In this document: positions 16,579 to 58,605 of the stretch, piece by piece
How the letters are laid out: every line of letters begins with the position of its first letter
Position numbering within the stretch: the first letter of the stretch is position 1
NCBI GenBank assembly: GCA_964651095.1
Contig: CAZYWO010000001.1
Span: 1 to 60,461, forward strand
DNA length: 60,461 bases
Origin: an uncultured Oscillospiraceae bacterium
GTDB taxonomy: Bacteria > Bacillota > Clostridia > Peptostreptococcales > Anaerovoracaceae
Reading direction: 5' to 3'
The notes under the pieces: generated by a model
Database searches by the model: none
What the model saw: only the letters and a program-made list of their open reading frames with translations
Told to the model about the DNA's origin: nothing
Position numbers and translations under genes: made by a program

Positions 16579-16917
16579 CTACATTTCAAATTTGTCCTCT
16601 CCGCCGAGGTAATCCTCAGCGTTAAAGCCCTCCAAGGTATCCTGAAGGCAGTAGAGCTCATCTTTGAAGTCCGTAACTGAATAATCCAAAAGTTCTGCCG
16701 CTTTCTTCGGATCAACACCATTTTTTACCATCAGCATAAAAGATTTACCAATCCCTATATTTATGCCTTCCTCACGTGCAGTATACAAAAAGCTTGCCTC
16801 ATCGTGACGGCGCTTTTCCTCAAGGCGGATTTTTTCCTGCATTATTTCTCTCGGAGTGAGCTTACGAAATGTTAATTTGAAATTGTCGTTATGACTGTTT
16901 GAATCCTTTTCAGACAT
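16579..16917 (-). CDS. Stand-alone paralogue of the Rpn-nuclease C-terminal domain
   Basis: 112 aa. Aligns with the C-terminal 100 aa of the adjacent Rpn gene (MQEKIRLEEKRRHDEAS.LYTAREEG ... DELY.LQDTLEGFNAEDYLGGED.FEM). Confidence 0.5.
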   Translation of the reverse strand: MSEKDSNSHNDNFKLTFRKLTPREIMQEKIRLEEKRRHDEASFLYTAREEGINIGIGKSFMLMVKNGVDPKKAAELLDYSVTDFKDELYCLQDTLEGFNAEDYLGGEDKFEM

Positions 16918-16936
16918 TATTAATCCTCCGATTCAA

Positions 16937-17877
16937 TTACATTTCAAATTCGTCCTCTCCGCCGAGATAATCCTCAGCGTTAAAGCCCTCCAAGGTATCC
17001 TGAAGATAGTAAAGCTCATCTTTGAAATTGTTGACGGAACATCCCAAAAATGCAGCGGCATTAGCAGGCTCAACACCCATTTTGACCATACGGACAAAAC
17101 TTTCTGCTCGTTCTACTTCACGGCCTTCTTCACGGCCTTCCTCACGGCCTTCCTCACGTGCAGTATACAAATAGCTTGCCTCGTCATGACGGCGCTTTTC
17201 CTCAAGGCGGATTTTTTCCTGCATTTCTTCGTCCTTGCTGAGCTTACGAAGTGTCAGCACAGCTTTTTTGATCGGTACGTTTGTTGTTCTTTCAAGCATC
17301 GTTAAATCCTCCTCACTGTCAGCATTAAAAAACCTCATCCATGCATCAAGGCCCGTATTTTCCAGACTGCTTTCCTTTTCCAAGGCCTTGGGAAGCTCAA
17401 AATATATGGTCTTAAACTTGTCGGACAGGCGTGCTTTGTATCATAAATCTCAAAGGTCGATGCGTAGTCCTCGTGCTCCTTAAAGAGCTTAAAATCCACA
17501 ATGTTTATACAGATTACCTCCGGCAGCTTCCCGTAGGGCATTCCGCTTTTGAGCTGAGTCCCGAAGGTCTTTGCCCAGTAATACAGGCTTCTGTCGGAAA
17601 AGTCTATCTGCTTGGTACACTGTATCTCTATATTCACCTTGCGCCCTTCCACGTCCGCAAGCAAGTCCAGTCTGCTGAACTTCTCGTCCTCACTTTCGGC
17701 ATGTATTTCAGAATTGCCGATTTCTATGTTTCCTATACCGTCATAGTCTATGCCCAAGGATTCCGCAATAAAGCCTTTGAGCACCTCAGGTGTTTCGGGG
17801 TCGGTAAATACGCTTTTAAAAATTAAGTCATACTTGGGAGAAAGCACTTTCATTGGTCCTAAATACATCGGTATCAC
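16937..17877 (-). pseudogene. Rpn/YhgA-like PD-(D/E)XK recombination-promoting nuclease (putative transposase), frameshifted
   Basis: The N-terminal ORF (17335-17877) contains KYDLIFKSVF...RLDLLADVEGRKVNIEIQ. Homology then continues in another frame (ARLSDKFKTIYFELPKALEKE...). The frame switch is at about 17431-17440, next to an A3 run. The second frame is closed by TGA just upstream. Confidence 0.7.
17117..17158 (-). repeat. 12-nt in-frame tandem repeat (about 3.5 copies) encoding EEGREEGREEGRE
   Basis: ttcacggccttc / ttcacggccttc / ctcacggccttc / ctcacg, read directly. The repeat is absent from the paralogous copy at 16579-16917. Confidence 0.9.
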
Positions 17878-17889
17878 CCTTTCACTTAT

Positions 17890-17918
17890 ATTATACTATT
17901 TTCAGAGAACTATGTCAA
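17890..17918 (-). promoter_or_regulatory. Consensus sigma-A promoter for the Rpn-like gene
   Basis: The minus strand reads TTGACA, a 17-nt spacer, then TATAAT (17918-17913 and 17895-17890). It lies 8 nt after the pilin stop codon. Confidence 0.6.
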
Positions 17919-17925
17919 CATAAAT

Positions 17926-18429
17926 TTATCCCGGTTCAACAATTGCAATAACGTCGTCATCATAATCGCCGGAACTTAAATTTGCGGGAGCACCGTTTAC
18001 CCCTGCCGACGAAATTACAATAAGCCCCGTCAGGCTGTCTTTGTCTGCGCCATCGTAGGTGTATATGTCGATACAATAGGGATTTCCGAACGGATCCTTT
18101 TTTGTTTTCGTTTTTGCCTTAAAGGAATGTCCGTCCGCTGCTGCCGACAAAAACTCCGCTTCCCATGTAAAATAGCTTTCGTTTAAAAGACTTATTATGG
18201 CTTTGGCGTTGTCGGTATAGTTGCTGTCCGGCTTCAGCGTGATTTTCCCGTTGTCAAGCATATAATTCTCAAAGGAGCTTACCATGTCGGCAAGCTCGCT
18301 TTCGCAGCGGTCTGTCTGATTATTTTTGTAAACAGTGTTATAGGTTATGTTCCCGCCTGCAAACAATATAGCAATAACGGAAACAACAACCAGTATTTCC
18401 ACTAATGTGAAAGCGCTTTTACGCATCAT
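17926..18429 (-). CDS. Type IV (pseudo)pilin, minor
   Basis: N-terminus MMRKSAFTLVEILVVVSVIAILFA is a class III signal: basic leader, A at -1, F+1, E+5 and a hydrophobic helix. Confidence 0.8.
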   Translation of the reverse strand: MMRKSAFTLVEILVVVSVIAILFAGGNITYNTVYKNNQTDRCESELADMVSSFENYMLDNGKITLKPDSNYTDNAKAIISLLNESYFTWEAEFLSAAADGHSFKAKTKTKKDPFGNPYCIDIYTYDGADKDSLTGLIVISSAGVNGAPANLSSGDYDDDVIAIVEPG

Positions 18430-34540: not shown

Positions 34541-34547
34541 TATATAT

Positions 34548-35787: not shown

Positions 35788-35789
35788 AT

Positions 35790-36191: not shown

Positions 36192-36211
36192 AAATATATT
36201 CCTTCCTTAAA

Positions 36212-36424: not shown

Positions 36425-36444
36425 GTTAAGTGCTCCTTTCTTTT

Positions 36445-37314: not shown

Positions 37315-37324
37315 AGCGCACCTC

Positions 37325-38236: not shown

Positions 38237-38237
38237 G

Positions 38238-43057: not shown

Positions 43058-44410
43058 TTACATTTCATTTTCTTCAAAACCGCCGTTGGTCAGGTTTTTG
43101 TTAAACCTTGCAGCAGTACGGTCACTTTTGTGTATATATTCCTTTAATGCATTACCCTCAAGGCTCTTATTGTCCAGAGCATCTGAAATCGGGTAATCGC
43201 TGCCGGAACTGCTTCGGGCAATTTGTACAAGCCCGATAAACAGGTTAAGCTCTCCGCTTACCGTATTAAGCTTGAACTGTTCCTGAAGGGCTTTCGACGT
43301 AAACCACTCATTGCCTCCGTAAAGCATATCTGTGCTGAGATACTTTCCGTTGGGAGTTTTTATTAGAAGGTCCGGATATTTATCGCTTAAAGTCACTTCA
43401 TAATCTAATGCCTTCATACCCTCAATAAATTGATTCATGGAAAGACATCTTTTTGAAATTTGAACGATTGTTTCTCTGGCCTCTCTGAACTCCTTTTGAA
43501 GCTGAGTTATTACCTTAGTCTGTTCATCGGGATTACAGGTTTCCCGGTTAAGGTTTATAACCTCGACAAACCGCTTCAGCCGCCAATGGTTATTAGGTTT
43601 ATCCGCATTTTCCTTAAATCTGCGGGTTAAGGCACTTTTGGAGAAGAAGTAGTCTGTTTCCGCCTTTTCTTCTCCGGCCTCTTTATCGGCCCGTTCAAAC
43701 AGCTCATCAAGCTTATGGTCACGGACTTTTTTTCCGTCTGAATTTTCAAAGGTTATGTATTTGCGGTTTTCCTCCCAAATTACATTTTTGTATCCTATGG
43801 CTTTCATTGCCCAAATGAATTCCTCTTTGGATTCTGCCGCCTCCGCTATGTAATCAGCTGCAAGCATTGTTTCGTGAACCCAGCTGAAGCGGCCATACTT
43901 CATTATATAATACAGGCCGTTGCTTCGCTTGCGCTTCACGCCTATATCAATAGCATCCAACCGCATTTCCTTCAGAACGTTTTCATTGATATCTCTTTTC
44001 AGCTGCATCAATTCCATGTTGGTCTGATGCCATTTTTTACCGTCAAGCCCCACAGAATTTATAAGGAAATGCACATGAGTATGAGCTTTGTCACGATGAA
44101 CGCCGAACACCATTTGAAAGTTTTCAAACTCCTTAAGCCGGAGAACCTTCTCAGCCGCTTCGGCTGCCTTTTCATAGCTGACATCCTCTTTCTGCGAGAA
44201 TGACAGTACAAAATGCGTTGCCAGTCTGCCGCCGGTTTTTTCGGCAGCTTCACGGGTACATTGAAAATCCCAGTATACATTTTCTATGTCCGTGTCCTTC
44301 TGACCAATAAGATTAGGAGCAGTTTTTTGTTCGCCGAAAATATATTCGATGGCCTTTTTTAATCCAGCTTTTGTTTTGATTGCGTTATTAATAAATTTAA
44401 GGATTGCCAT
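43058..44410 (-). CDS. Relaxase (MobA/VirD2 relaxase family)
   Basis: 450 aa. LATHFVLSFSQKE and the histidine triad VHRDKAHTHVHFLINSV. Preceded by mobC. Ends GGFEENEM. Confidence 0.85.
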   Translation of the reverse strand: MAILKFINNAIKTKAGLKKAIEYIFGEQKTAPNLIGQKDTDIENVYWDFQCTREAAEKTGGRLATHFVLSFSQKEDVSYEKAAEAAEKVLRLKEFENFQMVFGVHRDKAHTHVHFLINSVGLDGKKWHQTNMELMQLKRDINENVLKEMRLDAIDIGVKRKRSNGLYYIMKYGRFSWVHETMLAADYIAEAAESKEEFIWAMKAIGYKNVIWEENRKYITFENSDGKKVRDHKLDELFERADKEAGEEKAETDYFFSKSALTRRFKENADKPNNHWRLKRFVEVINLNRETCNPDEQTKVITQLQKEFREARETIVQISKRCLSMNQFIEGMKALDYEVTLSDKYPDLLIKTPNGKYLSTDMLYGGNEWFTSKALQEQFKLNTVSGELNLFIGLVQIARSSSGSDYPISDALDNKSLEGNALKEYIHKSDRTAARFNKNLTNGGFEENEM

Positions 44411-44887: not shown

Positions 44888-45112
44888 TTAACATTCCAAG
44901 GATTTTATTTGTTCCTCATAATAGCACAGCCTTTTATTCCGTTCGGGACTTTGGGGCAGCCGTCTTTCTGCTGACAGTGCATCCGTATAAAACCGCAGCT
45001 TGGTTTTATAAAAATTACACCGCTTTTTCAGCGGCAATGCAATGATAAGTACGCTGCACATCCCGGAGGAAGGCTGATATGCAAAGCAGTCTTTGCATTT
45101 GTTTTCATTCAT
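44888..45112 (-). CDS. Small cysteine-rich protein
   Basis: 74 aa. CKDC...C...C pattern at the N-terminus. Its start overlaps the Toprim gene stop. Confidence 0.4.
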   Translation of the reverse strand: MNENKCKDCFAYQPSSGMCSVLIIALPLKKRCNFYKTKLRFYTDALSAERRLPQSPERNKRLCYYEEQIKSLEC

Positions 45113-46245
45113 TCCAGTACCATCTCCTCTTGTTCCTGTATCCGAAGAAGGTCATCGTTATAGTCCTTCGATATCGGAGCTCTGATTTTAACGGTATATC
45201 CCATGGCGCTGTATTTATCAGAATAGCCGGTCATGGCACGAATCCCTGCATCATCATTATCCAAACAAAAGGTTATTTCTTTGATATTTCTATGCCCCTT
45301 GAGGTATCTGTCCAAAGCGAGGTCGCTTACTCCGCCCAAGGAAAGATAGCTGAACCGGCGATAGTCAACCCCCTCTGATTTTGCGATACTGATAACCGAA
45401 AGGGCATCAATGGGGCTTTCCGTTACAAAAAGCTTGCTTCCGTTTGAATCCAAATGGAAGCCTACACTTTTGTCGCTTCCCAAAGCGTCCTGACGGTATT
45501 TGCTTGCTGAATTAGTGCTGCGTTTGCTTGCATAAGCAATATCGCCCTTTTCGTCATTTCCAAGAAATACCACACCAAAGTTAATTTTGTAATCCTTTAT
45601 GATTTTGCCGCTGAACAATCCATTCAGTGTATTTCTTTTCGTGTCCTGAAGCTGCATATATTTGGGAATACCGTCTTTATATCCGATGCCGTCTTTCACG
45701 GTATCTATAAGCTGTTTTTCCAAAAGATATTTAATCCCTTCGGCTGATATCCCGTTGACTTCTTCACCCTTCGGGAGCCTGAGCCGAACATCCGCCGCCT
45801 GATAAATCAGTCCCTGATGCATAAGCTGCGAAATAAGCTCTCCGTCAATTCCCCTTGTTTTATTGAGATAAGCAAAGGCGGCATGATGGTTTTCATGCCG
45901 CCAGGGAAGTATCGGAGAAAAATGAGGCTCGTCAGCTTTTTTGACTGCCGGAGTATACACGACCGGAGCAATGCTGTTTACCCCCGCAAATTCGGAAAGA
46001 CGTATAACCGCATCCACGTAGGGAATACCTTCCACCGCCGTCATATAATCAATGGTATTTCTGCCGCCGAATCCCCGTGAAAACCAGTGCCATTTATTGT
46101 TGCGTGAAATGACAAGACTGTCATGTTCGGCAAGGCAAAAATCCCTCCCTCTGGGCTTTAATACATGACCTGTCCGGGTAAGATAGTCCACAAGGCTTAC
46201 GCCGAGAGCGGCACTGTACTGTTTCTGAGTAAACCGTTTTGCCAT
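45109..46245 (-). CDS. DUF3991-like plus Toprim domain protein (primase/topoisomerase-like)
   Basis: 378 aa. Toprim acidic motifs LFVTESPIDALS and FCLDNDDAGIRA. The N-terminal region is typical of ICE Toprim proteins. Confidence 0.7.
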   Translation of the reverse strand: MAKRFTQKQYSAALGVSLVDYLTRTGHVLKPRGRDFCLAEHDSLVISRNNKWHWFSRGFGGRNTIDYMTAVEGIPYVDAVIRLSEFAGVNSIAPVVYTPAVKKADEPHFSPILPWRHENHHAAFAYLNKTRGIDGELISQLMHQGLIYQAADVRLRLPKGEEVNGISAEGIKYLLEKQLIDTVKDGIGYKDGIPKYMQLQDTKRNTLNGLFSGKIIKDYKINFGVVFLGNDEKGDIAYASKRSTNSASKYRQDALGSDKSVGFHLDSNGSKLFVTESPIDALSVISIAKSEGVDYRRFSYLSLGGVSDLALDRYLKGHRNIKEITFCLDNDDAGIRAMTGYSDKYSAMGYTVKIRAPISKDYNDDLLRIQEQEEMVLE

Positions 46246-46248
46246 TCT

Positions 46249-49200
46249 TTATACCTCCATTTCTAAGTCCTCAGCGGCATCTTGAGCCGCACAGACTTCT
46301 TCAATTAGTTTTTTAAACAGTCCGGGCAAATCCTGTTCCGAAAGCCCTCCCAGATTTGTTTCAATGCGATCGTCCAATAGGCTGTAACGAATTTCTTCAG
46401 AATCAACGAAGTATTCCAAAATATGTATCTCATTTGTTTCTTTGAGAAATTCAAAAGAAAAACAAGGCTCCTTTCCATAGAAATCACCTTGTCTCTCATA
46501 ATGGGCTATGCTGAATATGCTGCCGCCCATGCTTTCAAGCATAAATTTTCCCATCTCTATGTAGGGCGTACCTTCAACAATGGGCGAAAATAATTCTTGT
46601 ACGGTTTCATAAAAAGCTTTTTCCTCCGGATTTTCGGCATCCAGATTAAGTTTGGTATCTATTTCCGCAAGTCTTATTTCCATAGCCTCCAGTTCATCTT
46701 TGTGCTCCCATTCTTTTGTTAAAAGCTCCTTTGCGGCGGCTATATCACTTTCCGTTTCTGATATCTTTTCATTATGCTTTACAATTACATTTTCAAAATC
46801 GTTTAACACATTATCCATTCTTGTAATATTGCCTATGGGGGAGCTGCCAAGCTCTGTTTTGTGAGCTTGCTTTCCCAAAAGAATCATAGCATATGAATAC
46901 TCACCGAAAAAAAGGGAAGGCTCAATTTTTAAGGAGAAGCCACGATAGCTGCCTATGTGTGTGCTTGAATTGTACTTCCGGCACAGCTCAATAATAGCTT
47001 TGCCGGCCTTTTCCTTATTCCTATACACAATTCCTTCGAGGGTTATTTCAAAATCAGGTTTTGTTTCGGCATTGCGGGTTTTTATATCAGCTTCATAATC
47101 TTCAATATATTTTTTATGATACTCTATTTTTTTGGGATACCCGATTTTCAGATTTTGGGCAATTGCTGATTTTTGCAAAACAAACCCATTCTTGAGAAGT
47201 TTCAGCCGCTGGATTTCCGTTTCGAGCTCCATCTTTTCCTTAATGAGCGGATTGCCCGTGGCAAGAGCTTTGATCTCCGCATAGGACAGCACAGTCTCGT
47301 CAACGTCGGAAGCTGACCTTGCAGGCACTTTTCCCGTCATAATCTGAGAAATAAATTTCTGTTTATTTTCAATTATCTGATAGAGATACGCATCGAAGGT
47401 GCCTTCCGTAACATAACGGTGTATGTATACCTTCTTATTTCTGTTTCCCTGACGGATAACCCTTCCTGCCCGCTGCTCCAAATCCCGTGGCCGCCACGGA
47501 CAATCTAAATCGTGGATGGCAATAAGCCTTTCCTGAACGTTGGTTCCGGCTCCCATCTTTTGGGTGCTGCCAATTAATACACGCACCTCTCCGCTGCGCA
47601 CTTTGGCAAACAATTCTTCCTTTGCTGCCTTTGTTTTTGCGCTGTGGATATACGCTATTTCTTCCGGCGGTATTCCCATTTTTATAAGCTTTTCCTTAAG
47701 GTCATCGTAAACGTTGAAATTACTTTTATCCGGAGTTGAAATATCACAGAACACAAGCTGCGTAAGACGTTCGTCCATGCCGTCGCTCCAGTGATTAAAA
47801 ACTCTTTGCGCACACAAATTCACCTTGCTTTGAGAATCATCGGGGGCGAGAGGATTTATCAGCCTTTGGTCAAGGGCCAGCTTCCGCCCATCGTTAGTGA
47901 CCAGAAGCATATTATCTTCTATGGAAATGTCCCCGTCACGGGTAAATTTCATAGGATCTCCCTTTCGTATTCTGTCAGCCCGCATACCGAACGATTTAAC
48001 TATCTTTTTCTGAAGGTCGGAGGGCTTTGATATTTCGGTAATAAACTCAGCTTCGGGAACAGGAAGATTGAGCATGTCGGCAGTCTGAATATCTGCAACC
48101 TCTTTGAACATAGTCATAAGCTCCGGCAGATTATTAAACTTTGCAAAACGTGTTCTGAAACGCTGTCCCGTACCTTCTGGGTTAAGCTCCATAGCCGTGA
48201 CGGTTTCGCCGAAGGTTGAAGCCCAATCGTCAAAATTTATCAGCCCTGATTCGTTCAGAACATCATATTGAAGGTATCGCTGTATGGTATAAAGCTCCGT
48301 CATGGAATTACTTATGGGAGTTCCGGTGGCAAAGATAACACCCCTGCCGCCAGTAATCTCATCGAGATATCGGCACTTCATGAAAAGGTCATTGGATTTC
48401 TGCGCTTCGGTCTGAGCTATGCCGGCGATATTACGCATTTTTGTATACAGATACAAGTTTTTAAATTCATCGCTTTCATCGACAAAAATCCGATCAATGC
48501 CCAATTCTTCAAACTTTATCACATCATCCTTAGTGCCGGTTTCCGTAAGTTTTTTAAGCTTTTCGGTGAGCCTCTTTTTTGTGAGCTCCAACTGCTTCAC
48601 AGACCATCTGTCGGCACTGTTACTGTTGGTTATGGCCTCAGTTATGTCAAAAATCTGCCGTTCCAAATGCTTTTCCTGATATTCCTGAGACATAGGTATC
48701 TTTTCAAATTGACTGTGACCGATAATAACTGCGTCATAATTGTTTGCCGCAATACGTCCGCAGAATTTTTTTCGGGCGGATTTTTCAAAATCCTTTTCCG
48801 TAACGGCAAGTATGTTTGCAGACGGATACAGTCTGAGGAAATCCTTTGCCCACTGGTCCACGATATGATTCGGAACAACAAAAAGAGATTTACTGCATAA
48901 CCCCAGACGTTTGCTTTCCATTGCCGCCGCAATCATTGTAAAGGTCTTTCCTGCGCCCACCGAATGGGCTATCAGTGTATTTCCACCGTAAATCACACGT
49001 GCGGCAGCCACAAGCTGATTGGGGCGGAGGGCTATTTCCGAGTTAATGCCCGAAAGTATCAGATTGCTCCCATCATATTCACGGCTTCGGATTGAATTGA
49101 ATTTTTCATTGTATATATCCTCTAACCGTTTCCTCCTATCGGGGTTCATCCATATCCATTCCTCAAATTTATTTCGTATGTCCCGCTGCTTTTGCTGGGT

Positions 49201-52200
49201 GAGTATTGTGGCCTCGTGGTTTATTACCCGTTTTTCTTTCCCGTTTTCAGTTATGGTTTTATATATTTTTACGTCTTTAAGATTGAGGGTATCTTCAATT
49301 ATTTCAAGAGCATTTTTGTAATTTGTACCGTAAGTTTTATCTGTGTGGACATTGGAAATTATACTCTTACCGTTGACATTCCAATTCCCGGACTCTTTGC
49401 TGTACTGAGCATAGATTTTGTCCTCCTGCCAAAAAGAAGGCTTTGCTATCTCACGGCAAAATTCTGTAATAATATCAGTCGGCACCCAAGTAGAACCCAA
49501 GCGGACGATTATATCTTCGGCGGTAAGCCTTTCCGGCTGAACAGCCTCCAATGCCGATACGTTTATGCTGTATTCTTCGGAATACAGCTCTGCGGCTTTG
49601 CTGGCAAATTCAAGCTTTTCACGTACATTCCCCGAAAGATACTCGCTGCGGACAAGATATTTATTCCCATTAGCCCCTAAGCCGGTTTTGGGATTTAAGA
49701 ATATTTCGCCCTTGAGCTCACTGTACAATTCCGTTTCTGATTTTCCTGTAAGAGCTGACATATAATCCATATCAACCCGTGCCTTTTCCGCATAGGACAA
49801 CGCCAATGCCTCCGAAGCTGTATCAACATGGGTAACAACAGTTTTCGGTCTTATTGTGCGCTCGTTAAAAATCTGTCCCTTTCCGGCAAAGTTTCCCTTG
49901 CTGTCAAAATTCTCTATTGATGCTATAAGGTAATATCCGTCGTCTCTTGAAAAAGCACGTTTATTGATTTTGTCATTTATACGACCAAACCTGTCAGCAA
50001 AGCGGTCATATGTATTATTAAGCTTTTCTTGCAGCTCTTGTACAACTTCATCGCTTTCACCCTCAAGCTGGGCTGCAATGACGCTGCGCACAATGTCACG
50101 CACTTCAATCATTCCCTTTACCCGTTCTTCTGAACTTTTGGGAATGTCGGCAGGATACATTTTGTCGGTTTCCTTGTAATAGATTTTTTCATTGTAAATG
50201 GTATAGGAATAGTTTCTTGCATCCGGATCGGCGGGAATGGGGTTGTTATCTTGCTCGTCAATATCCTCGCCAATTTCGGCTTCTATATATGTTCCGTGTA
50301 TATTTTTTATAGCTTCTTTCAGCTGTTCCTCAAGGGTTACGCCCTCATAAGGAACGACTGTAAAATCATCTTTACCGTACTGAGTGCTTTTTGATGTCTG
50401 ATGTCCAAGTATCATATCCGGATTGTTGATAAAGTAGCTGTTTATGGAAAAACCATCTTTATTTACTCCAAGATGTAACCAATCGGGTTCAATCTCAATC
50501 GGGCTTTCACGCTTCTGCAAAAAGATAATATCCGATACAACGCTTGTACCAGCATTTGCTTTAAATGCTGTATTCGGAAGCCGTATCGCTCCCAAAAGCT
50601 CCGCTCTTTTTGCAAAATACTGTCTTGCTTCGGGCGATTGCTTATCCATAGTATATCGGCTTGTTACAAAGGCAATCACGCCGCCGGGACGAACCTGATC
50701 TATCGCTTTTGCGATAAAATAGTCGTGTATGGGAAAACCGAGCTTGTTATATGCCTTGTCACTTACCTGATACTGTCCGAACGGCACGTTGCCGACTGCC
50801 AAATCGTAAAAATCCCGTCTGTCTGTCGTTTCAAAGCCCGCAACGGTTATATCCGCTTTCGGATAGAGCTGTTTTGCGATTTTACCCGTTATACTGTCAA
50901 GCTCAACTCCGTACAGGTTACTCTGCGACATACTTTCGGGGAGCATACCGAAAAAGTTTCCTACACCCATTGACGGCTCAAGGATATTGCCCTTACTAAA
51001 GCCCATATTTTCAATAGTCTTGTACATAGCCTTGATTATGGTGGGTGGGGTGTAGTGGGCGTCGAGGGTGGAAGCTCTGGCTTGCTCGTATTCTTCAACG
51101 GTAAGCAGCTCTTTCAATTCGGTATATTCCTTCGACCAATTTTCTTTTGATGAATCAAACGCTTCAGGGAGGCCGCCCCAGCCCACGTAACGGGAGAGTA
51201 TTTCCTGTTCTTCGGGAGTGGCAAAACGGTTTTCGCTCTCGCACTGCTTTAGAACACTGATTGCCTCCATATTCATTCTGAACTTTTCCTTTTGCCCGCC
51301 ATAGCCCAACTCGTCATTTGTTATGCGGAAGTTGCGCCGTTCAGAGGTGAGTGTGTCGGTGGAGATGGTATTAACCACTATATCATAGGGCAGATTGTTT
51401 TCTTCCGCATGATATATGGCAGTTGTTTTCTCAGTAAAAGGCTTACTGTCGTGTTTCTGCAAGTCCACAACTCGTTTAAGCCATTCAACGCTTTCGCTTC
51501 GGAATATGGGAAAGCCCGTACCGTTTTGGAAGGTAATGTCTTTAAGCACTGCGTCTTCGCCGCTTATACTGTCAACAACATATTTTCTGTCGCCAATCAT
51601 CAGCTCTTTCCCGATAATATCGGGGGTTTCAGAATAATTAAGCTCCACATCTTCGCCGTTTATTTCCTTAATTTCCCGTTTCTTAACATAGCCTTGTGAG
51701 CGGATATTTGAAAACCACTGCCCGGCAAATGTATTTAATTCTTTGACCGTGGTACTGCCGTTTTCTACTGATTGGTAAACGGCCAATCCGTCCTGACGGT
51801 ATGTTTGGGGAGTAAGTGCCATATTTTCTTTATCAATGATAAATTCCATATCGGGATCATACATTACATCGCCGTTTTGAACATAGAAATGTGATACTGA
51901 TATTCTGTCCTCCGAAAGCCTTTCAATCGTAAGGGGCATAAACGATTCACCCGCCTCAAAGCGGATATACCTTGTTTCCCCGCTTATGATTTCCGGGGCA
52001 AGATCCGACAGAAAATAGTAGTTTCTTTCTTCCGCCGTTTTTCGGTTTGAAGTGCGTTCGGTTCCTGCAAAGGTTTTTTCAACATTTTTCATCATATCCG
52101 TATATGCGGATTTAAAAACATTGTCATACAGTCTTTGCCGAAAATCCATATTATCTGAAAACAAAACGTGGAAGCTCTCATGTTCTTCATCCGTGGGCAG

Positions 52201-55200
52201 CTTAGCTGCCGCACGGTTAACGGCGTTTTCACACTCCCTGCGGATAAGGCCGGTATCACTGCTTTCGGTTGATTGAAGATATTCACTATCACGCAAAACC
52301 GCACTTACGAAGTTGGTGGTATATACCCTTAAAATGTCCGTTTCCGTCTGTATAAACGAAGGATATTTTTCTTCCATGAAGTCCGCAAGCCGTCGAAGGT
52401 TTTCTCCTTTGATATCTCCGTCATCCGACAGCAGAGCAAGATCTGCTTTTTCATTCAGCAATCGTTCGGAAGAATGTTCAAATTCAAGAGTACCGTAATC
52501 GTAAAGCGTTGTTCGGCCCAAGGTATACAGTTGTTCAAGAAACCTTTCATCGCCATTCTCTCCAGACTTTGCCTTAAAGGCTTCTCTTATGTCGTAGGGA
52601 TAAAGCACCGTTTCGACAATCTGGCCTTTTGAGTCGTTACCGTCAGGATTATAATATGTCCACACAATACTTTCGTTTTCGGAATTGTAGATGAATTTGT
52701 TAATGCCTAAAATGAAATGTTTCCGCAGTTCCTGTTCATGAAGTAGCGGATATGTTTCGTCCACAACCTCTGTGTGTAGCTGGATACGAAACTCAGGTAC
52801 ATCGGAATACAGTCGTATAAGCTCTACATCGCCCGAATTGAGAACCGCACGGCGCACAGCAGCATTGCCCTCAATCACGGCATTTTCTCGGTCAGCGTTC
52901 AGACAGGCGTTTCGGTAAAGCATATCGTCCGTTACTGCTGCAATGACTGTCGGTTTATGCTTTGCAAGTGAGGTTTCAATATGTGTAAATGACGGCTCCG
53001 TTTCATATGCATCGATATTGCGTTCTGCCTCACGGTCAACGGACAGCAAAGTATAAATGCCACGCTTGCCCGTATTAGAATCTATTGCGGAAATGGTCAC
53101 ATCATACTTATCCCTGAGTTTTTCGATATTGGCTTCAAGAGTAAAGGCGGGAATACCGCAAAAATCCACCTTGCCGATATTTTTAATCTCTCTTTGTGCG
53201 AGGTGTATATCCAATACATCGGCTGCGATTTTTGCATCTTCGCCGTACATTTCAAAAAAATCTCCGACTTGGAACAGCACTATATCCGATGAATGAGCTT
53301 CTTTTATGGCGGCGTATTCGCTGCGTACATCATTGCTGCCGCTTATTTGTGGTATTTCCTGCTCTGTCTTATGTCGGGAAACATGCTCAAGTTCCTTCGG
53401 GTTTAAATATTTCCCATTTATGATAAGGCTGTTTATACGCCGTTCCGCCTGCTCCCACTTTATGAGAGTTTTTGCGTAGGGTGCGGAAATACCATCGTGG
53501 CCGTACTCAATTCCCTTTCCATCGTGCTTTTCGTAAAATTTTCCGTTATAGCTTCCGCCCATGCCATACTCATCTTTAAGAAACTTTATCCTTTTCGCTT
53601 TATCGGAGTTACCGTCAAAAAAGCGGTATATTCGGTATTTGCTTTCTGAAATATTACTGCCCCGGCTTAATATATTATTTATCTCGTCCTCGGAAATAAA
53701 TCTCTCCGGCGAAGTACGGCTCAGGCTTTCGGCGGTATATTCCTTTCTCGGCAGATACAAATCCCCGATGGCGGCGTCAGCTTCTGGCGGATTGTGAAAC
53801 CGTGAACGCATAATATCGGAGTTTTCGCTGTACAGCTCACAGAGTTTTTCAGTTATACGCTTGGTTTCGTCAAGCCCTTCGGCGGTTTGCAGATGCGCCG
53901 CAATTCTCGCCGTCTCCTTGGGGAAACCTTCTCGGCTCCCAAAAACCTCGGCTTCAAAAAGCGTATTTAATTCGGGATAAACCTCATAATTCAAATCCTG
54001 CTTCATATACCAAAAGGTTTCCGCCGTTTTTTGATACTCGTAGTCTTTCATTTGAAGAAGCACGTCCTTCGGAGCATACCTCCCCAAATCCAGTAAAGCA
54101 TCAATTCGCTCTGAGGCGGCTTCCCATGAAAGCAGCGTTGCTCTTTCTGCCTGTGCCGAGCCGCCAAAGGCAATACGGATTCCGGCCTCGTCCCACCAAG
54201 CGGAAACCTTTACTCCGTCAAGGATAAAGCCCTTGCCGTCAGTGTCGTACAGCTTTTGCAGAAATGCGGCCTTTTCTTCCATGGGTTTGTTTTTACTGAA
54301 CTCAATGCAGATTTCAAGCACGCTGTTTTCCTCATTGGTGCCGTCACAGAGCACCTCGTCAATAACTTGCTGGGGAACAGAAAAAGCGAAGCTCGTCTGC
54401 TCCGCCTCTCCGATATGTTCCTGATACTCTGCCGCAGGCACTGTATCAAGAAAGCTTAACTGTACACTATCTCCCGAAGTACCACTTCCTCCGCCGAATG
54501 CTTGTAGTTGTTCATCAGCCCCGCCCATTTCAGGGGATTGCGCTGCTTCAGTGCTTCGTCCGTCCCGTCCTGTTCGGCCATTCTCTGAATTATCTGCTCC
54601 TCCGTCTGTTCTGCTGTTTCGCTCACTGTTGCCAGATGCTCCGAAAGCTTCCCGTTCCGCAGCAGATCCATCAGTTCCGTCTTTTTGTTCTCCATTAAGT
54701 GTTCCATGCACAGTTTCCCGTACCGGCCTATGGGCTTCCCCGTCTGAAGATACATAGCTTCCAGATTGGGGATATACATTCCGTTCGCTTCCTTGTAAAC
54801 CATTTCCATATACATTCTCCTTTTCTTTACGTTTTACGGTCTTTTCAACCGTTCTTAATATGTTTTGTGCAACGCTGCTGACCTTGCTTCCAAATCCGCT
54901 CAATTCCTCCGGGTCGGAGGGAACGGTAAGCCCGTCTGTAACGATGATGTTATCAGGAGACAATTCCATTCGGCTCAGCAGCATATATATTACCGACGCT
55001 TCCGCTGACGAAAGATACTTCTGGCTCAAATCCGGCATTTCTTTCCTTACTGCATTATGTGCAGAACAGATAACCGCATCAACTATTGTAGTATTTACTT
55101 TTAATCCCCCAAATGAATTTTCAAGTTCTTCAATAACAGCATCTTCGGTTTCCATACGAAACTGCCAGAGCCTTATGTCCTGTCCCTGCCTTCTGTATGT

Positions 55201-55491
55201 GTCGGAAACATCATAAACATACTCTAACTTAAAGCTGTCGCCGACGTCTCTGAGCAAAGCTATTCCCTTCGAGCCCTTATGTATACCTCTTTTCAGGGTG
55301 TCTGTCCAAACCTTAAAAGATGCGCAGGCAGACGCATCGGGCCGCTGAGCATAAATCATAAGCTGATCCATGAATGAATACTTATAGTTCGCTGCTGCGG
55401 TCTTTAAAAATTCTGCCCATTTAGTTCCTCCGCTGCTTACAGACTTAAGCGCATCCTCATAAAGTGCAGCCATCGCCAATATTTTTTTCAA
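46249..55491 (-). CDS. Polyvalent 3080-aa protein: ArdC-N-like ssDNA-binding, MutS-domain-I-like, N6-adenine DNA methyltransferase, SNF2 helicase
   Basis: Uninterrupted 9.2-kb ORF. ArdC-N-like: YSFMDQLMIYAQRPDASACASFKVWTDTLKRGIHKGSKGIALL (about 55100-55430). MutS-I-like: VLFQVGDFFEMYGEDA (53080-53322). MTase motif I EPSMGVGNFFG and motif IV VGNVPFG (about 50400-51200). SNF2 motifs AHSVGAGKTF, FVDESDEFKN and QRAGRVIRQGN (about 47350-49100). Confidence 0.85.
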   Translation of the reverse strand: MKKILAMAALYEDALKSVSSGGTKWAEFLKTAAANYKYSFMDQLMIYAQRPDASACASFKVWTDTLKRGIHKGSKGIALLRDVGDSFKLEYVYDVSDTYRRQGQDIRLWQFRMETEDAVIEELENSFGGLKVNTTIVDAVICSAHNAVRKEMPDLSQKYLSSAEASVIYMLLSRMELSPDNIIVTDGLTVPSDPEELSGFGSKVSSVAQNILRTVEKTVKRKEKENVYGNGLQGSERNVYPQSGSYVSSDGEAHRPVRETVHGTLNGEQKDGTDGSAAEREAFGASGNSERNSRTDGGADNSENGRTGRDGRSTEAAQSPEMGGADEQLQAFGGGSGTSGDSVQLSFLDTVPAAEYQEHIGEAEQTSFAFSVPQQVIDEVLCDGTNEENSVLEICIEFSKNKPMEEKAAFLQKLYDTDGKGFILDGVKVSAWWDEAGIRIAFGGSAQAERATLLSWEAASERIDALLDLGRYAPKDVLLQMKDYEYQKTAETFWYMKQDLNYEVYPELNTLFEAEVFGSREGFPKETARIAAHLQTAEGLDETKRITEKLCELYSENSDIMRSRFHNPPEADAAIGDLYLPRKEYTAESLSRTSPERFISEDEINNILSRGSNISESKYRIYRFFDGNSDKAKRIKFLKDEYGMGGSYNGKFYEKHDGKGIEYGHDGISAPYAKTLIKWEQAERRINSLIINGKYLNPKELEHVSRHKTEQEIPQISGSNDVRSEYAAIKEAHSSDIVLFQVGDFFEMYGEDAKIAADVLDIHLAQREIKNIGKVDFCGIPAFTLEANIEKLRDKYDVTISAIDSNTGKRGIYTLLSVDREAERNIDAYETEPSFTHIETSLAKHKPTVIAAVTDDMLYRNACLNADRENAVIEGNAAVRRAVLNSGDVELIRLYSDVPEFRIQLHTEVVDETYPLLHEQELRKHFILGINKFIYNSENESIVWTYYNPDGNDSKGQIVETVLYPYDIREAFKAKSGENGDERFLEQLYTLGRTTLYDYGTLEFEHSSERLLNEKADLALLSDDGDIKGENLRRLADFMEEKYPSFIQTETDILRVYTTNFVSAVLRDSEYLQSTESSDTGLIRRECENAVNRAAAKLPTDEEHESFHVLFSDNMDFRQRLYDNVFKSAYTDMMKNVEKTFAGTERTSNRKTAEERNYYFLSDLAPEIISGETRYIRFEAGESFMPLTIERLSEDRISVSHFYVQNGDVMYDPDMEFIIDKENMALTPQTYRQDGLAVYQSVENGSTTVKELNTFAGQWFSNIRSQGYVKKREIKEINGEDVELNYSETPDIIGKELMIGDRKYVVDSISGEDAVLKDITFQNGTGFPIFRSESVEWLKRVVDLQKHDSKPFTEKTTAIYHAEENNLPYDIVVNTISTDTLTSERRNFRITNDELGYGGQKEKFRMNMEAISVLKQCESENRFATPEEQEILSRYVGWGGLPEAFDSSKENWSKEYTELKELLTVEEYEQARASTLDAHYTPPTIIKAMYKTIENMGFSKGNILEPSMGVGNFFGMLPESMSQSNLYGVELDSITGKIAKQLYPKADITVAGFETTDRRDFYDLAVGNVPFGQYQVSDKAYNKLGFPIHDYFIAKAIDQVRPGGVIAFVTSRYTMDKQSPEARQYFAKRAELLGAIRLPNTAFKANAGTSVVSDIIFLQKRESPIEIEPDWLHLGVNKDGFSINSYFINNPDMILGHQTSKSTQYGKDDFTVVPYEGVTLEEQLKEAIKNIHGTYIEAEIGEDIDEQDNNPIPADPDARNYSYTIYNEKIYYKETDKMYPADIPKSSEERVKGMIEVRDIVRSVIAAQLEGESDEVVQELQEKLNNTYDRFADRFGRINDKINKRAFSRDDGYYLIASIENFDSKGNFAGKGQIFNERTIRPKTVVTHVDTASEALALSYAEKARVDMDYMSALTGKSETELYSELKGEIFLNPKTGLGANGNKYLVRSEYLSGNVREKLEFASKAAELYSEEYSINVSALEAVQPERLTAEDIIVRLGSTWVPTDIITEFCREIAKPSFWQEDKIYAQYSKESGNWNVNGKSIISNVHTDKTYGTNYKNALEIIEDTLNLKDVKIYKTITENGKEKRVINHEATILTQQKQRDIRNKFEEWIWMNPDRRKRLEDIYNEKFNSIRSREYDGSNLILSGINSEIALRPNQLVAAARVIYGGNTLIAHSVGAGKTFTMIAAAMESKRLGLCSKSLFVVPNHIVDQWAKDFLRLYPSANILAVTEKDFEKSARKKFCGRIAANNYDAVIIGHSQFEKIPMSQEYQEKHLERQIFDITEAITNSNSADRWSVKQLELTKKRLTEKLKKLTETGTKDDVIKFEELGIDRIFVDESDEFKNLYLYTKMRNIAGIAQTEAQKSNDLFMKCRYLDEITGGRGVIFATGTPISNSMTELYTIQRYLQYDVLNESGLINFDDWASTFGETVTAMELNPEGTGQRFRTRFAKFNNLPELMTMFKEVADIQTADMLNLPVPEAEFITEISKPSDLQKKIVKSFGMRADRIRKGDPMKFTRDGDISIEDNMLLVTNDGRKLALDQRLINPLAPDDSQSKVNLCAQRVFNHWSDGMDERLTQLVFCDISTPDKSNFNVYDDLKEKLIKMGIPPEEIAYIHSAKTKAAKEELFAKVRSGEVRVLIGSTQKMGAGTNVQERLIAIHDLDCPWRPRDLEQRAGRVIRQGNRNKKVYIHRYVTEGTFDAYLYQIIENKQKFISQIMTGKVPARSASDVDETVLSYAEIKALATGNPLIKEKMELETEIQRLKLLKNGFVLQKSAIAQNLKIGYPKKIEYHKKYIEDYEADIKTRNAETKPDFEITLEGIVYRNKEKAGKAIIELCRKYNSSTHIGSYRGFSLKIEPSLFFGEYSYAMILLGKQAHKTELGSSPIGNITRMDNVLNDFENVIVKHNEKISETESDIAAAKELLTKEWEHKDELEAMEIRLAEIDTKLNLDAENPEEKAFYETVQELFSPIVEGTPYIEMGKFMLESMGGSIFSIAHYERQGDFYGKEPCFSFEFLKETNEIHILEYFVDSEEIRYSLLDDRIETNLGGLSEQDLPGLFKKLIEEVCAAQDAAEDLEMEV
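54456..54815 (-). CDS. tnpV: TnpV-family protein encoded out of frame inside the 3080-aa ORF
   Basis: 119 aa. YKEANGMYIPNLE...IGRYGKLCMEHLMENKK...LLRNGKLSEHLATVSETAEQ...GTDEALKQRNPLKWAGLMNNYKHSAEEVVLREIVYS follows the recalled TnpV (PF14198) pattern throughout. SD AAAGGAGA at 54823-54816, with ATG codons at 54815, 54809 and 54803. The frame is offset by 1 relative to the giant ORF. Confidence 0.7.
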   Translation of the reverse strand: MYMEMVYKEANGMYIPNLEAMYLQTGKPIGRYGKLCMEHLMENKKTELMDLLRNGKLSEHLATVSETAEQTEEQIIQRMAEQDGTDEALKQRNPLKWAGLMNNYKHSAEEVVLREIVYS

Positions 55492-56214: not shown

Positions 56215-56225
56215 GCTTCCGCCTC

Positions 56226-56375: not shown

Positions 56376-56398
56376 ATTCTTTATTCTCTCATAGTTGT

Positions 56399-57175
56399 TC
56401 AAAGCTCAAATTCCTCTGCTTTGCCTGCAATACCCCAACTTTCGGCAACGCCATCTGCAAAGGATTCGACACAGTTGTGTATCTCTGCCATATGATCAGC
56501 TTCACAGTCGAGCCAAGCCTGATAACAGGAAGCAATAGGACAGGGCAGCATAAGCAATGCCTTTGTTTGTGCTTCGGTTAAAACGTCGCTTTTCAAGGAA
56601 ATAAGAATATCGTCACGCACCGACTTTTCATAGGCTCTTTCTATTATTTCTTCCGCAGGCATTTTCTTCAGGAGCTCCACATAATCACGCTGCTCTCCAT
56701 CCGCCCGTTCTTGCAGCATAACAGTCAATTCAGCATGAGAAAAATCGTCCAAATTTATTTCTTCGGCTTTTTTCAATTCGTCTCGAACCTGAGTAACAAG
56801 AGTATCCAAAATTCCGGGATGAATGTTAAGATAGGGGACATTTCCCTTAAATTTATCGGCTATCAGTTTTTGTCCCCAAGAGCGGTTTTCTCGTGATATT
56901 CTTACGTCCCAATCACCTATGGAGTTGATATTGCCGGCAAGAACCAGACATAACCGCTGAGCCCCAAACTCATTAAGAAGCCTTTGTGCCCCATCGCTTG
57001 CCAAAGATGAACCGTTATAGTTATCTTTTATCATATTTATGATTCTGTCCCGGCATCGGGCATTTTCCTCTTCAGAAATCCGGAAAAGGTATTCCTCACC
57101 CCTTGACTTCGCAATTCCGGGGGAATGAGGATACACGTCTTTTATAGTTTTCATTTTGTTCCTCCTTAAGTTCAC
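56399..57175 (-). CDS. Hypothetical ICE accessory protein with C-terminal EEFEL tail
   Basis: 258 aa, cytoplasmic. No motif I can name with confidence. Ends GKAEEFEL. Confidence 0.55.
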   Translation of the reverse strand: MNLRRNKMKTIKDVYPHSPGIAKSRGEEYLFRISEEENARCRDRIINMIKDNYNGSSLASDGAQRLLNEFGAQRLCLVLAGNINSIGDWDVRISRENRSWGQKLIADKFKGNVPYLNIHPGILDTLVTQVRDELKKAEEINLDDFSHAELTVMLQERADGEQRDYVELLKKMPAEEIIERAYEKSVRDDILISLKSDVLTEAQTKALLMLPCPIASCYQAWLDCEADHMAEIHNCVESFADGVAESWGIAGKAEEFEL

Positions 57176-57178
57176 ATC

Positions 57179-57511
57179 TTAAAGCTCAAATTCCTCTGCT
57201 TCGTTTACCGCAGCCTCACTTTCTGCAAGGCAAAACTCTTTTATGCCCACTGCTATATCAAAATCAGAATCCTTGCCACAGGCATTATAGTGGAAAAAAG
57301 TATTCAAAGCTTGCGCAATAGCCATTGCATGTCTTTTATCAAAAACGTCAATAAAATCGTCGTAAGTGTAAGGACGAGAATCAAAAGGTAAAGAACGACA
57401 CTTAGACAGGCATGGCAAGGCAATGAATGAACCTAAAACACGTGGAACATAAATCAACGTATAACGAATACCATCAAGAAAAAAAGGAATCTCACTAATC
57501 TCATTAAACAT
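57179..57511 (-). CDS. Hypothetical small protein with C-terminal EEFEL tail
   Basis: 110 aa. Ends NEAEEFEL. The last 21 nt, including the stop region, are identical to those of the downstream gene (aaagctcaaattcctctgctt). Confidence 0.5.
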   Translation of the reverse strand: MFNEISEIPFFLDGIRYTLIYVPRVLGSFIALPCLSKCRSLPFDSRPYTYDDFIDVFDKRHAMAIAQALNTFFHYNACGKDSDFDIAVGIKEFCLAESEAAVNEAEEFEL

Positions 57512-57552
57512 TTAAATCTACCTCTTTCTTTCACTTTTTTGAGTGCCTGATA

Positions 57553-58605
57553 TTACATTTCTTCTTCGATTCCGGCTTCCATGTTATCCTCAAACTCGGC
57601 GCTATGTTCAACATAAAACTCCAAAGCCCTAATTATATATTCCTCGATTTCCTTTTTGGATTGGGTGGGAGCAAAATATTTCTGAGCAAACCCAAGGTTT
57701 ATATTTTTTGTTTTTGTTCCTATGGTTTTTCTTGCGGCAGTTTGGTTATACGTTCCGTTGAGTATCATCTCCGTAACCTCGTTGCTGAGTTTACCCTCTT
57801 TAAAGGTTTTTCTTATCAGCTCTGCCTTTTTTATATCAAGCTTATAGCTTTCAATCTCATCGAGCCTTTGGGCAAGGAACCTCTGAGCATCATGGCTGAT
57901 ATAAGAAATTTCCACAGCCGCCACAAGGCCGATGCGCTCGTCGTCCAACAGCTCCAGCATTTCATCACTGAGCTTGGCAATGCACAAATATCTTGCCACA
58001 TTTCTTCTGGAAAGCCCGTATTTTTCGCCGCTCTCTTTCAGGTTATCCGACTTTGTGCCAAATTGGCACAAAGTTGAGTTTTCCCCGTCGTTAAGGGATT
58101 TCATGAGGGCTTCAATCTCATTTATTATGTCGCTTCTCTTGCCCTGAGCACGTACCGCATCCATATGAGCTGCCAATACAAACGCCCGTTGTGAGTGGCT
58201 CATGTCGGATATACCACGCTGATAAAGATTGGTTTCTGTAACAATAAGCTTTGCTTCTTCCTCTGTAAGGTTATCCTTGACTATAACAGGAACTTCACTG
58301 AATCCGGCAAGCTTCGCAGCATTTACTCGGTTGTGGCCCGAAAGTATTTCGTAGTGACTGTCGTCAATTTTGCGGACTATAATGGGGCAGATTATTCCGT
58401 TGGCTTTTATGCTTTCTATCATGTCGTTAAGGCGTTCTCCCTCGTACAGCTTAAAACGGTGCTTTGAGTATGGCATAAGCATCTCAACCGGCAGGACGGA
58501 CGGCAGACCGGTTTCTGTTGTATCTGTTGTCGCAGAAGTATCTCCGAACAGCGTACCGAAATTTTCAGGCTTTTTCAGTTTAATACTTGATCCTCCTATC
58601 GGCAT
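57553..58605 (-). CDS. parB: ParB/Srx N-terminal-domain protein
   Basis: 350 aa. ICPIIVRKIDDSHYEILSGHNRVNAAKLAGFSEVPVIV (ParB box GHxR) plus a downstream HTH-like region. Adjacent to parA. Ends AGIEEEM. Confidence 0.8.
   Translation of the reverse strand: MPIGGSSIKLKKPENFGTLFGDTSATTDTTETGLPSVLPVEMLMPYSKHRFKLYEGERLNDMIESIKANGIICPIIVRKIDDSHYEILSGHNRVNAAKLAGFSEVPVIVKDNLTEEEAKLIVTETNLYQRGISDMSHSQRAFVLAAHMDAVRAQGKRSDIINEIEALMKSLNDGENSTLCQFGTKSDNLKESGEKYGLSRRNVARYLCIAKLSDEMLELLDDERIGLVAAVEISYISHDAQRFLAQRLDEIESYKLDIKKAELIRKTFKEGKLSNEVTEMILNGTYNQTAARKTIGTKTKNINLGFAQKYFAPTQSKKEIEEYIIRALEFYVEHSAEFEDNMEAGIEEEM

Follow-up and report, generated by a model that had tools for sequence, protein, structure and literature searches.

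A C-terminal tag of two charge flavours on cargo-type proteins of Firmicutes conjugative elements, a candidate signal for type IV secretion

The window analysed here is the whole 60.5 kb stretch (60,461 nt, 43% GC) of contig CAZYWO010000001.1 from an uncultured Oscillospiraceae bacterium. It represents a Firmicutes-type conjugative element, all real genes of which lie on the minus strand. Several unrelated soluble proteins of this element end in a similar acidic tail. This observation is confirmed, and sequence comparison extends it to a widespread C-terminal tag borne by cargo-type proteins in a large family of conjugative elements of Firmicutes. What is chiefly new is that, as judged from orthologues, the tail comes in two interchangeable flavours. 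The flavour of the window consists of an acidic run, then F, E, N or M, then Glu and a hydrophobic last residue. In many elements of Clostridia and Bacilli, orthologues of six carrier families (ParB, DUF3848, the polyvalent SNF2 protein, DUF3991-Toprim, the family of a 324-aa protein and the relaxase) carry instead a basic flavour, a Lys/Arg run closed by E-x-E-R-COOH. The best available reading, to which we give about an even chance, is that the tail is a recruitment signal for the conjugative type IV secretion system (T4SS).

All 11 C-termini on which the original prediction of a T4SS substrate tag was built are present in the window where it had placed them, on the minus strand; seven are strict and four, including IDNEL of a 58-aa open reading frame (ORF) at 56226, are looser (Table 1). 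The null for their enrichment was how often each motif occurs inside these 61 proteins, over ~19,400 internal positions, with one Rpn paralogue dropped. On this basis 0.074 of the 60 non-paralogous proteins would be expected to end in [FEN]E[LM]-COOH, and seven do (P=1.6e-12); FE[LMV]-COOH closes five against 0.019 (P=1.5e-11) and the strict form [DE]x[FE]E[LM]-COOH four against 0.009 (P=2.8e-10). The enrichment that the prediction called for after removal of paralogues is therefore clear, at P of about 1e-10 to 1e-12 under the internal-position null; the motif was picked post hoc from the data, and the margin holds under any reasonable correction. All seven motif matches are real minus-strand genes among the six-frame stop-to-stop segments of at least 100 aa. 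Identical terminal tripeptides, counted without any motif, are only marginal (2 pairs, P=0.07), so that the shared signal is a motif class and not one identical peptide. The carriers have three to five Asp/Glu among their last eight residues and a net charge of -2 to -4 over these eight. The tail was found on none of the 32 proteins with a hydrophobic segment (membrane or secreted) versus 11 of the 27 soluble ones (Fisher P=4.7e-5), which bears out the claim that membrane and signal-peptide proteins are tail-free; the machinery, membrane and regulatory proteins of the window lack it.

The tails of the same families change together from element to element. Five families (ParB, DUF3848, polyvalent, DUF3991-Toprim and 324-aa) were compared in a BLAST-based orthologue table and the relaxase separately; all six have acidic tails in the window and in its close relatives L008 and L011, and basic tails in the more distant elements compared. 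In L008 the relaxase (75% identical) ends NNGFEEEQ, the polyvalent protein EEESEEMEI and the Toprim protein PPESEMIL. In L011 ParB ends GEAENFEL, and the DUF3849 protein, 84% identical, ends GEAEDFEL; we count a tail kept at this identity as a sign of protein-level selection. Among basic-flavour orthologues, the DUF3848 proteins end KKEPER and AQKER, the polyvalent proteins SEMER, KTYER and KDYER, and the DUF3991-Toprim proteins GKEPER and RSFAR, and the relaxases of distant and syntenic elements end NDKRR, PPGRR, HKRHKRRR, DTQRR and DEYGR. The two flavours are alike at position -3 (hydrophobic) and -2 (Glu) and differ in the last residue (Arg versus Leu, Met, Ile or Val) and in the upstream charge. 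A switch of tail chemistry across at least six families between elements is as expected for a shared cognate receptor. The acidic flavour recurs in at least one independent lineage, that of locus L060 (ParB ~37% identical), where four neighbouring unrelated proteins end DDMEL, EPAEL, GDLEI (SEGDLEI on the Toprim protein) and EDLEL. At L059 ParB ends EDEELEV and the polyvalent protein TELEEACI, and a Clostridium lundense locus gives acidic hints (NDDELEL, QEWENEI). Searches for homologues of the relaxase and of the DUF3849 protein each brought up just one close relative, and a ParB scan of the genome collection two distant loci only.

The basic flavour is abundant. Related loci from metagenomes and look-ups (L001-L007 and L012-L047) contain 344 distinct ORFs of 80 aa or more; 66 of these have an E.ER end, where 0.09 would be expected. 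The metagenomic loci, found through the family alignment, contain unbroken runs of 6-11 consecutive proteins with a [KR]-rich stretch and E-[PVMT]-E-R, among them ParA, ParB, small ORFs, a 301-aa family and a polyvalent protein of ~2800 aa. A fully annotated Monoglobus integrative and conjugative element (ICE) and three Subdoligranulum elements have 8-12 or more tagged proteins each, and a Cohnella plasmid has three, adding DUF3848, DUF3991-Toprim, DUF3846, PcfB and DUF6075 proteins to the set; metagenome contigs of Lachnospiraceae type also carry this flavour. The ICE L050 encodes 12 tagged proteins, from ParA through the gene before virD4 and including the relaxase, PcfB, Toprim, the SNF2 polyvalent protein and DUF3846, with no tag on MobC, PrgI, SpaA or seven complete chromosomal neighbours. 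Chromosomal flanks of related ICEs served as a stand-in for a host-chromosome comparison, and the adjacent genes there (lon, pflB, pgk, tpi) are untagged. No tail block was seen in the Acetoanaerobium locus L053, the E. faecalis plasmid L054, L051, L057 or L062.

Conservation of the tail in orthologues with diverged bodies had been set beforehand as a test that could refute the prediction, and the tail is not kept: of the 82 homologues that the databases gave for the 324-aa protein, every one has another tail. FDEFEM is found on none of them, and nearly all end in a basic run plus [DE][MV]ER-COOH. Since the replacement is another conserved tail, we read this failed conservation as evidence for a modular tag. 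The nearest homologue (80% identical) is colinear with the window protein as far as EYTGEYKPYT and differs only beyond it, with a basic tail of 14 residues versus an acidic one of 28. In an AlphaFold2 model of the 324-aa protein, built with 45 family members, pLDDT is ~94 for residues 1-294 and below 50 for residues 295-317; the tail of this one modelled carrier is thus predicted to be a disordered extension outside the fold, over its last 23 residues. The protein has no Pfam or NCBIfam match, and a fold search gave no meaningful match in the PDB (TM 0.17). The family also occurs in forms of ~195 and ~300 aa with the same tail, and a 353-aa protein of Lachnospiraceae bacterium MD329 (P0021; L002 10001-11062) joins ParB_N to the C-terminal ~200 residues of the family and retains a KKHKDMER tail. 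This fusion and the variant lengths indicate domain shuffling among the cargo proteins.

Similar gene ends could be due to chance or to a shadow of translation signals, as packed operons often place the end of one gene over the Shine-Dalgarno sequence (SD) or start codon of the next. Such a constraint is visible in the 301-aa basic-flavour family, where K-E-V is fixed as AAG-GAG-GTY ahead of an overlapping ATG and the SD is a partial contributor. Many untagged proteins of the window (at 41045, 40371, 38238, 36445, 1210 and 5366 among others) end GG-x(1-3), for example ILGGIQ, LLGGVQ, KEKGGI, GLGGIF and LTGGGL, and YGGVQ in VirD4; these ends are most simply explained as the in-frame shadow of the next gene's GGAGG and provide an internal contrast to the FE[LM] tails. 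For the window tails themselves this explanation is rejected. In Rpn, SpoVG, the relaxase, the 110-aa protein and ParB, the stop codon is followed by a visible SD for the next gene, and the other tails lie 41-143 nt from the next start. Three of the four L060 tails lie 19, 82 and 268 nt from it. The terminal E-R of the basic flavour persists also where there is no downstream gene, with varied codons (Arg as CGC, AGA, AGG, CGA or CGG; Glu as GAA or GAG) and all three stop codons, and its retention through these changes argues for selection at the protein level. With P values of about 1e-10 to 1e-12 in addition, chance or a translation-signal shadow is hardly credible, and is essentially excluded for the window.

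A second alternative without any role at the protein level is that the shared tails are footprints of gene shuffling, the tail DNA and the intergenic region acting as a cassette joint. A length difference of ~390 nt from L011 lies inside the ParB tail-coding DNA (window 57120-57640, L011 640-830) and is apparently an insertion in the window rather than a deletion in L011. The insert gives ParB a new tail end and stop (AGIEEEM), followed by an SD and the body of the 110-aa gene, which reads into the former ParB tail (EAAVNEAEEFEL); an in-frame acidic tail stands on both sides of the junction and both products are tagged. The 258-aa and 110-aa genes have one stretch of tail DNA in common (GCAGAGGAATTTGAGCTT), Rpn and the 324-aa gene another (GACGAATTTGAAATG), and bodies and tails recombine freely in relatives (the P0002 tail swap, the P0021 ParB_N fusion). 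However, the DNA shared between carriers amounts to just 14-19 nt, tail residues are conserved across elements through synonymous codon changes, the flavours are defined by chemistry (charge, terminal residue) and not by DNA sequence, and independent lineages such as L060 reach the same chemistry with different sequences. Recombination at the tails is equally expected if they are conserved for their function. The pattern fits recombination at conserved functional ends, and recombination alone cannot explain convergent tail chemistry through different sequences and codons. We consider a pure footprint very unlikely.

If the tail is a T4SS recruitment signal, a short, disordered and modular C-terminal tag would mark soluble proteins encoded by the element for the conjugative T4SS, and the tagged proteins would be transferred with, or alongside, the relaxase-bound DNA. 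The common core of the tag would be a hydrophobic residue at -3, Glu at -2 and a variable residue at -1 before the terminal carboxylate, preceded by an Asp/Glu run and read as [F/L/M/E]-E-[L/M/I/V]-COOH in the acidic flavour, or by a Lys/Arg run and read as E-x-E-R-COOH in the basic one. Each element would use one flavour on all its cargo, presumably matched to its own receptor, most likely VirD4, the coupling protein, or an adaptor attached to it. Binding to VirD4 and translocation are what we infer. The relaxase alone is an obligatory T4SS substrate; it has the acidic tail in the window and the alternative tail in relatives. T4SSs of F plasmids are known to transfer ParA, ParB, SSB and PsiB (PMC8406263), and the polyvalent proteins of conjugative elements have been predicted to be co-transferred, with no C-terminal signal described (PMC5512222). 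The claim that the carriers belong to classes known or suspected to travel into recipients stands for the relaxase, ParB, the SNF2 polyvalent protein, DUF3991-Toprim and DUF3848/3849. The prediction knew of no C-terminal signal for Gram-positive conjugative T4SSs; in the open-access literature, reviews of 2020 and December 2025 give none and describe the evidence as limited, and no published description of the tail was found.

The C-terminal domains (CTDs) of type IV coupling proteins (T4CPs) are known docking sites for substrates and relaxosomes (PMC7434980), and acidic ones serve this role in TraD-TraM, Agrobacterium VirD4 and DotL (PMC7434980, PMC12857230). VirD4-type coupling proteins are present in elements of both flavours, with the same Pfam architecture and ~25-27% identity. 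In five basic-tail elements the VirD4 C-terminal extension is rich in Glu, Asp and Leu (FELLSDEDMENIF, YELLSDEDFEV, EEELEELLDE), and the net charge of the last 30 residues is -8, -10, -9, -2 and -4, versus +4 in the window. The window thus looks like a polarity reversal of cargo tail and VirD4 tail, which is a lead and not a result. It allows speculation about an electrostatic handshake with two exclusive polarities, basic cargo with an acidic VirD4 tail or acidic cargo with a basic-ended one. Such a handshake is doubtful, and it is just as tentatively that we suggest that its tag would specify 6-12 proteins injected into the recipient across a large family of Firmicutes elements. The link between tail and VirD4 consists of a single charge reversal, and VirD4 is a candidate receptor. 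The acidic VirD4 motif of relatives, [FY]ELLSDED[FM]E / EEELEELLDE (L048 34735-36597, L050 35824-37620, L055 41329-43194), resembles the window cargo tails [DE][DE]FE[LM]. A tblastn search of PLSDB with the C-terminal extension of the window VirD4 gave no match, and an exact look-up of the protein no record. The window VirD4 ORF lacks the N-terminal transmembrane region of its homologues in L048 and L050 and starts just past a stop codon; upstream of it lies an unrelated 167-aa ORF (6864-7367) with a signal-peptide-like start. From its sequence, the coupling protein of this element may lack a transmembrane domain.

Several facts weigh against recruitment through VirD4. The charge reversal is that of one acidic-flavour VirD4 (n=1), and its CTD, at ~+3 over 60 residues, is of mixed charge and not strongly basic. 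T4CPs as a rule have acidic CTDs, which are hence weak evidence in the basic-tail elements. L051 combines a basic relaxase tail with a VirD4 without CTD, and the Exiguobacterium plasmid L049 shares the T4SS and Tad module of the window (VirD4 40% identical) yet has no tail block, so that the tag tracks the cargo or leading-region module and not the T4SS module. In the window, ParA (58608-59408, minus strand) retains the basic-like end LLERKER. The acidic motif is loose (FEEEQ on the L008 relaxase, MVLE on the window Toprim protein), and Rpn, SpoVG and the P-loop protein do not belong to the classic transferred proteins. Finally, the tagged genes largely coincide with the block around the origin of transfer (oriT), and the tail may go with early expression in the recipient instead. 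The strict motif of the original prediction holds in the window and is loose even in close relatives, as in GFEEEQ of the L008 relaxase; its reading as a T4SS substrate signal is partly supported by these comparisons.

The same facts that point to a shared, flavour-specific partner would be accounted for if the tails bound something other than the coupling protein and assembled the cargo into one nucleoprotein complex, with no secretion signal involved. Candidates are a relaxosome or partition scaffold (a ParA/VirC1-like ATPase or MobC/NikA), an escort chaperone, and contacts that mimic ssDNA or are autoinhibitory. The tag goes with the ParA-ParB-polyvalent-Toprim-relaxase module and not with the T4SS, L049 having the same T4SS type and no block, and acidic tails with a hydrophobic end are a common docking device, as in the SSB tip (DDDLPF in L054) and in the TraD tail bound by TraM (PMC8406263, PMC7434980). 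No candidate visibly co-varies with the flavour, however: ParA occurs with both flavours and has a basic-type end in the window, and MobC/NikA is untagged and conserved. Neither would the sharing of one tag by the relaxase and soluble cargo be explained, unless the complex itself is the transfer substrate, in which case this alternative merges with T4SS recruitment. We regard it as unlikely, though as the likeliest of the rivals, ahead of a degron and then of a recombination footprint.

The ParA of the window ends EILLERKER, like the basic-flavour ends KHKSEIIR and KHRTDLIR of relatives and not like the acidic ones, and seems not to have been swapped to the acidic tail. A search of nearly all called window proteins, the scope of all Pfam scans here, found no PDZ or TPR receptor encoded by the element.

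The tail could also be a C-terminal degron or stability signal that clears establishment and anti-defence proteins expressed early from the leading region, or keeps their levels low in the donor. It is exposed, disordered and extreme C-terminal, as are bacterial C-degrons, the genes that carry it are concentrated near the presumed oriT and leading region, and the element encodes a C39-like peptidase. Opposite charges would, however, need two proteases that switch with the element, and donors need the relaxase and ParB stably. The C-degrons known in Firmicutes (ssrA, LAA) are non-polar, unlike either flavour. The C39-like peptidase is membrane-anchored, of leader-peptide type and not conserved with the tag (the close relative L008 has an M23 peptidase there); as a tail processor it is unsupported. 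A degron is accordingly an improbable explanation.

Among known systems, the VirB/VirD4 substrates of Agrobacterium (VirE2, VirF, VirD2) offer a close likeness to the basic E-x-E-R flavour of the relatives. Their positively charged C-terminal signal (Vergunst et al. 2005, as cited in PMC8406263) is likewise extreme C-terminal, unstructured, defined by charge and borne by unrelated proteins including the relaxase, and it is read by a VirD4-type coupling protein with a contribution of the acidic CTD (PMC7434980). The window tail, too, lies within the last ~20-30 residues, beyond the conserved bodies in alignments and outside the fold of the one carrier modelled; unrelated proteins share it, the relaxase among them, and machinery and envelope proteins lack it. 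A net-positive, Arg-rich character is seen in the basic flavour of relatives and not in the window tail, which has the opposite charge, a hydrophobic last residue and a Gram-positive host. In contrast to the diffuse Arg-rich Agrobacterium signal, the terminus here is sharply defined (E-R or E-[LM]-COOH), on up to a dozen proteins in a row.

The acidic flavour recalls the E-block of Dot/Icm substrates in Legionella, a Glu-rich C-terminal stretch that DotM binds and that the coupling complex recognises through electrostatic contacts. It is placed 10-17 residues before the end, with no fixed terminal residue. Dot/Icm is a type IVB system with DotL, DotM and IcmSW, whereas the window T4CP is a VirD4 of the CD1115 family, accompanied by a VirB4-like ATPase and TrbL_4; Pfam and NCBIfam scans of nearly all called window proteins found no homologue of DotM or IcmSW. 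A short acidic C-terminal peptide is also found on TraD, bound by TraM (F), and on TrwB, bound by TrwA (R388), where essential hydrophobic or aromatic residues mediate a handshake of coupling protein and relaxosome (PMC8406263, PMC7434980, PMC12857230). There the acidic peptide is on the coupling protein, whereas in the window it is on the cargo and VirD4 ends basic, so that the polarity appears reversed. The SSB tip (D-D-D-[IL]-P-F-COOH), a docking peptide, shares the acidic run and the hydrophobic end on a disordered tail, but none of the carriers ends P-F, Glu at -2 is conserved, and there are many unrelated carriers versus one hub protein. The 3080-aa protein and its DUF3848/3849, ParB-like and Toprim neighbours belong to the families for which Iyer et al. 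2017 (PMC5512222) predict delivery together with the DNA, in a paper on polyvalent proteins that deals with domain architectures and not with a C-terminal signal.

Some carriers differ from their first description. What had been called an Rpn nuclease and its paralogue are one frameshifted PDDEXK_2 gene and a partial duplicate of its last ~85 codons; the frameshift lies near EIYDTK|RLSDKFKTIYFELPK, and the separately initiated 112-aa ORF comes next. We take this arrangement to resemble the small C-terminal Rpn proteins encoded with Rpn nucleases. A tblastn search of PLSDB with the C-part of Rpn gave no match, and scans of viral contigs with Rpn and VirD4 found nothing. The IDNEL tail of the 58-aa ORF is not conserved (a 95%-identical orthologue ends RIDSES) and is probably due to chance. 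The ParB tail is an extension of 15 residues beyond the conserved ALExYF helix, at which most of 150 family representatives end. Two further ends deserve mention, that of a putative gene, a 164-aa ORF (34548-35042, minus strand) overlapping a 203-aa gene by 77 nt, with the acidic end NNFEIELE, and that of a signal-peptide protein at 13084, DLNLEL, a weak near-miss.

From the integrase onwards, Pfam and NCBIfam place on the element ParA, the ParB-like protein, the 110-aa ORF, DUF3849+DUF3848, the 58-aa ORF, XRE and Mom-like proteins; the polyvalent protein (MutS_I, DUF6908, SNF2), DUF3991+Toprim, NikA/MobC and the MobA/VirD2-type relaxase; the C39-like peptidase, a Tad-like pilus module, the AAA_28 P-loop protein, the 324-aa protein and a type IV pilus module; the SpoVG-like protein, the frameshifted Rpn/PDDEXK_2 gene and its partial duplicate, large surface proteins (Big_2/LRR) and a prepilin peptidase; and the CD1115-family VirD4, TrbL and a VirB4-like ATPase. 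Two type IV filament modules are thus encoded (17926-27870 and 35323-42067, minus strand). The T4P-like module has PilB, PilT, PilC, a PilN-like protein and several prepilins, with the prepilin peptidase at 7369-8154, and the Tad-like module CpaF, a TadZ-like protein, RcpC/CpaB and DUF4320. The T4SS and Tad part is syntenic with the Exiguobacterium plasmid pEYLC1.2 (L049), and a megablast search of PLSDB with the window gave no match. For the untagged Mom-like protein, a role in DNA modification or anti-restriction is possible from its family.

Table 1. Tail carriers and associated features of the window
Feature	Position	Strand	C-terminal end	Basis and remarks
VirD4-type coupling protein (CD1115 family), candidate receptor	5366..6973	-	WDKYKKSPPRRQMYGG	Pfam, NCBIfam; end of C-terminal extension
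Partial duplicate of Rpn C-terminal ~85 codons (112-aa ORF)	16579..16917	-	YLGGEDKFEM (strict)	88 nt to next start
Frameshifted PDDEXK_2/Rpn gene	16937..17877	-	YLGGEDEFEM (strict)	N-part 17335-17877, C-part 16937-17383; Pfam PF12784, profile 1-136 and 158-228 on two overlapping ORFs
SpoVG-like protein	19973..20296	-	GEELPDFEV (loose)	Pfam SpoVG 1e-22
324-aa (317 from ATG) protein	32072..33046	-	SEDCFDEFEM (strict)	Fold without known match; 143-nt gap downstream
AAA_28 P-loop protein	33096..34022	-	CCAEVEAL (loose)	Pfam; weakest member
C39-like peptidase	42083-42928	-
MobA/VirD2-type (MOBP-like) relaxase	43058..44410	-	NGGFEENEM (strict)	Pfam PF03432 1e-24, NCBIfam MobP
DUF3991+Toprim primase-like protein	45109..46245	-	QEQEEMVLE (loose acidic)	Pfam; missed by the original prediction
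3080-aa polyvalent protein (MutS_I, DUF6908, SNF2 helicase)	46249..55491	-	AAEDLEMEV (loose)	Pfam
Mom-like protein	55553-56029	-	untagged	PF25680, E=3e-8; between polyvalent protein and XRE regulator
DUF3849+DUF3848 protein (258 aa)	56399..57175	-	GKAEEFEL (strict)	Pfam
110-aa ORF	57179..57511	-	EAAVNEAEEFEL (strict, EAEEFEL)	Absent from relative L011
ParB-like protein (ParB_N + HTH_ParB)	57553..58605	-	AEFEDNMEAGIEEEM (strict, AGIEEEM)	Pfam

Which proteins Gram-positive conjugative elements send into recipients, and how these are selected, is an essentially unknown field, and experimental evidence on such proteins is limited according to a review of December 2025 (PMC12857230). If the tag is what selects them, the proteins that thousands of ICEs of gut Clostridia transfer could be read directly from their sequences, and it would be explained how polyvalent and anti-defence proteins reach the recipient ahead of gene expression. 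The opposite flavours would amount to a natural specificity-swap experiment, and the tag would provide a minimal peptide for engineered protein delivery between Gram-positive bacteria. On the more doubtful view of a handshake with two polarities, elements that reside together would be shielded from one another's cargo, and recombination within tail-coding DNA could turn any gene into cargo in one step. Should the tag bind something else, it is still an unannotated feature that pervades a major family of mobile elements.

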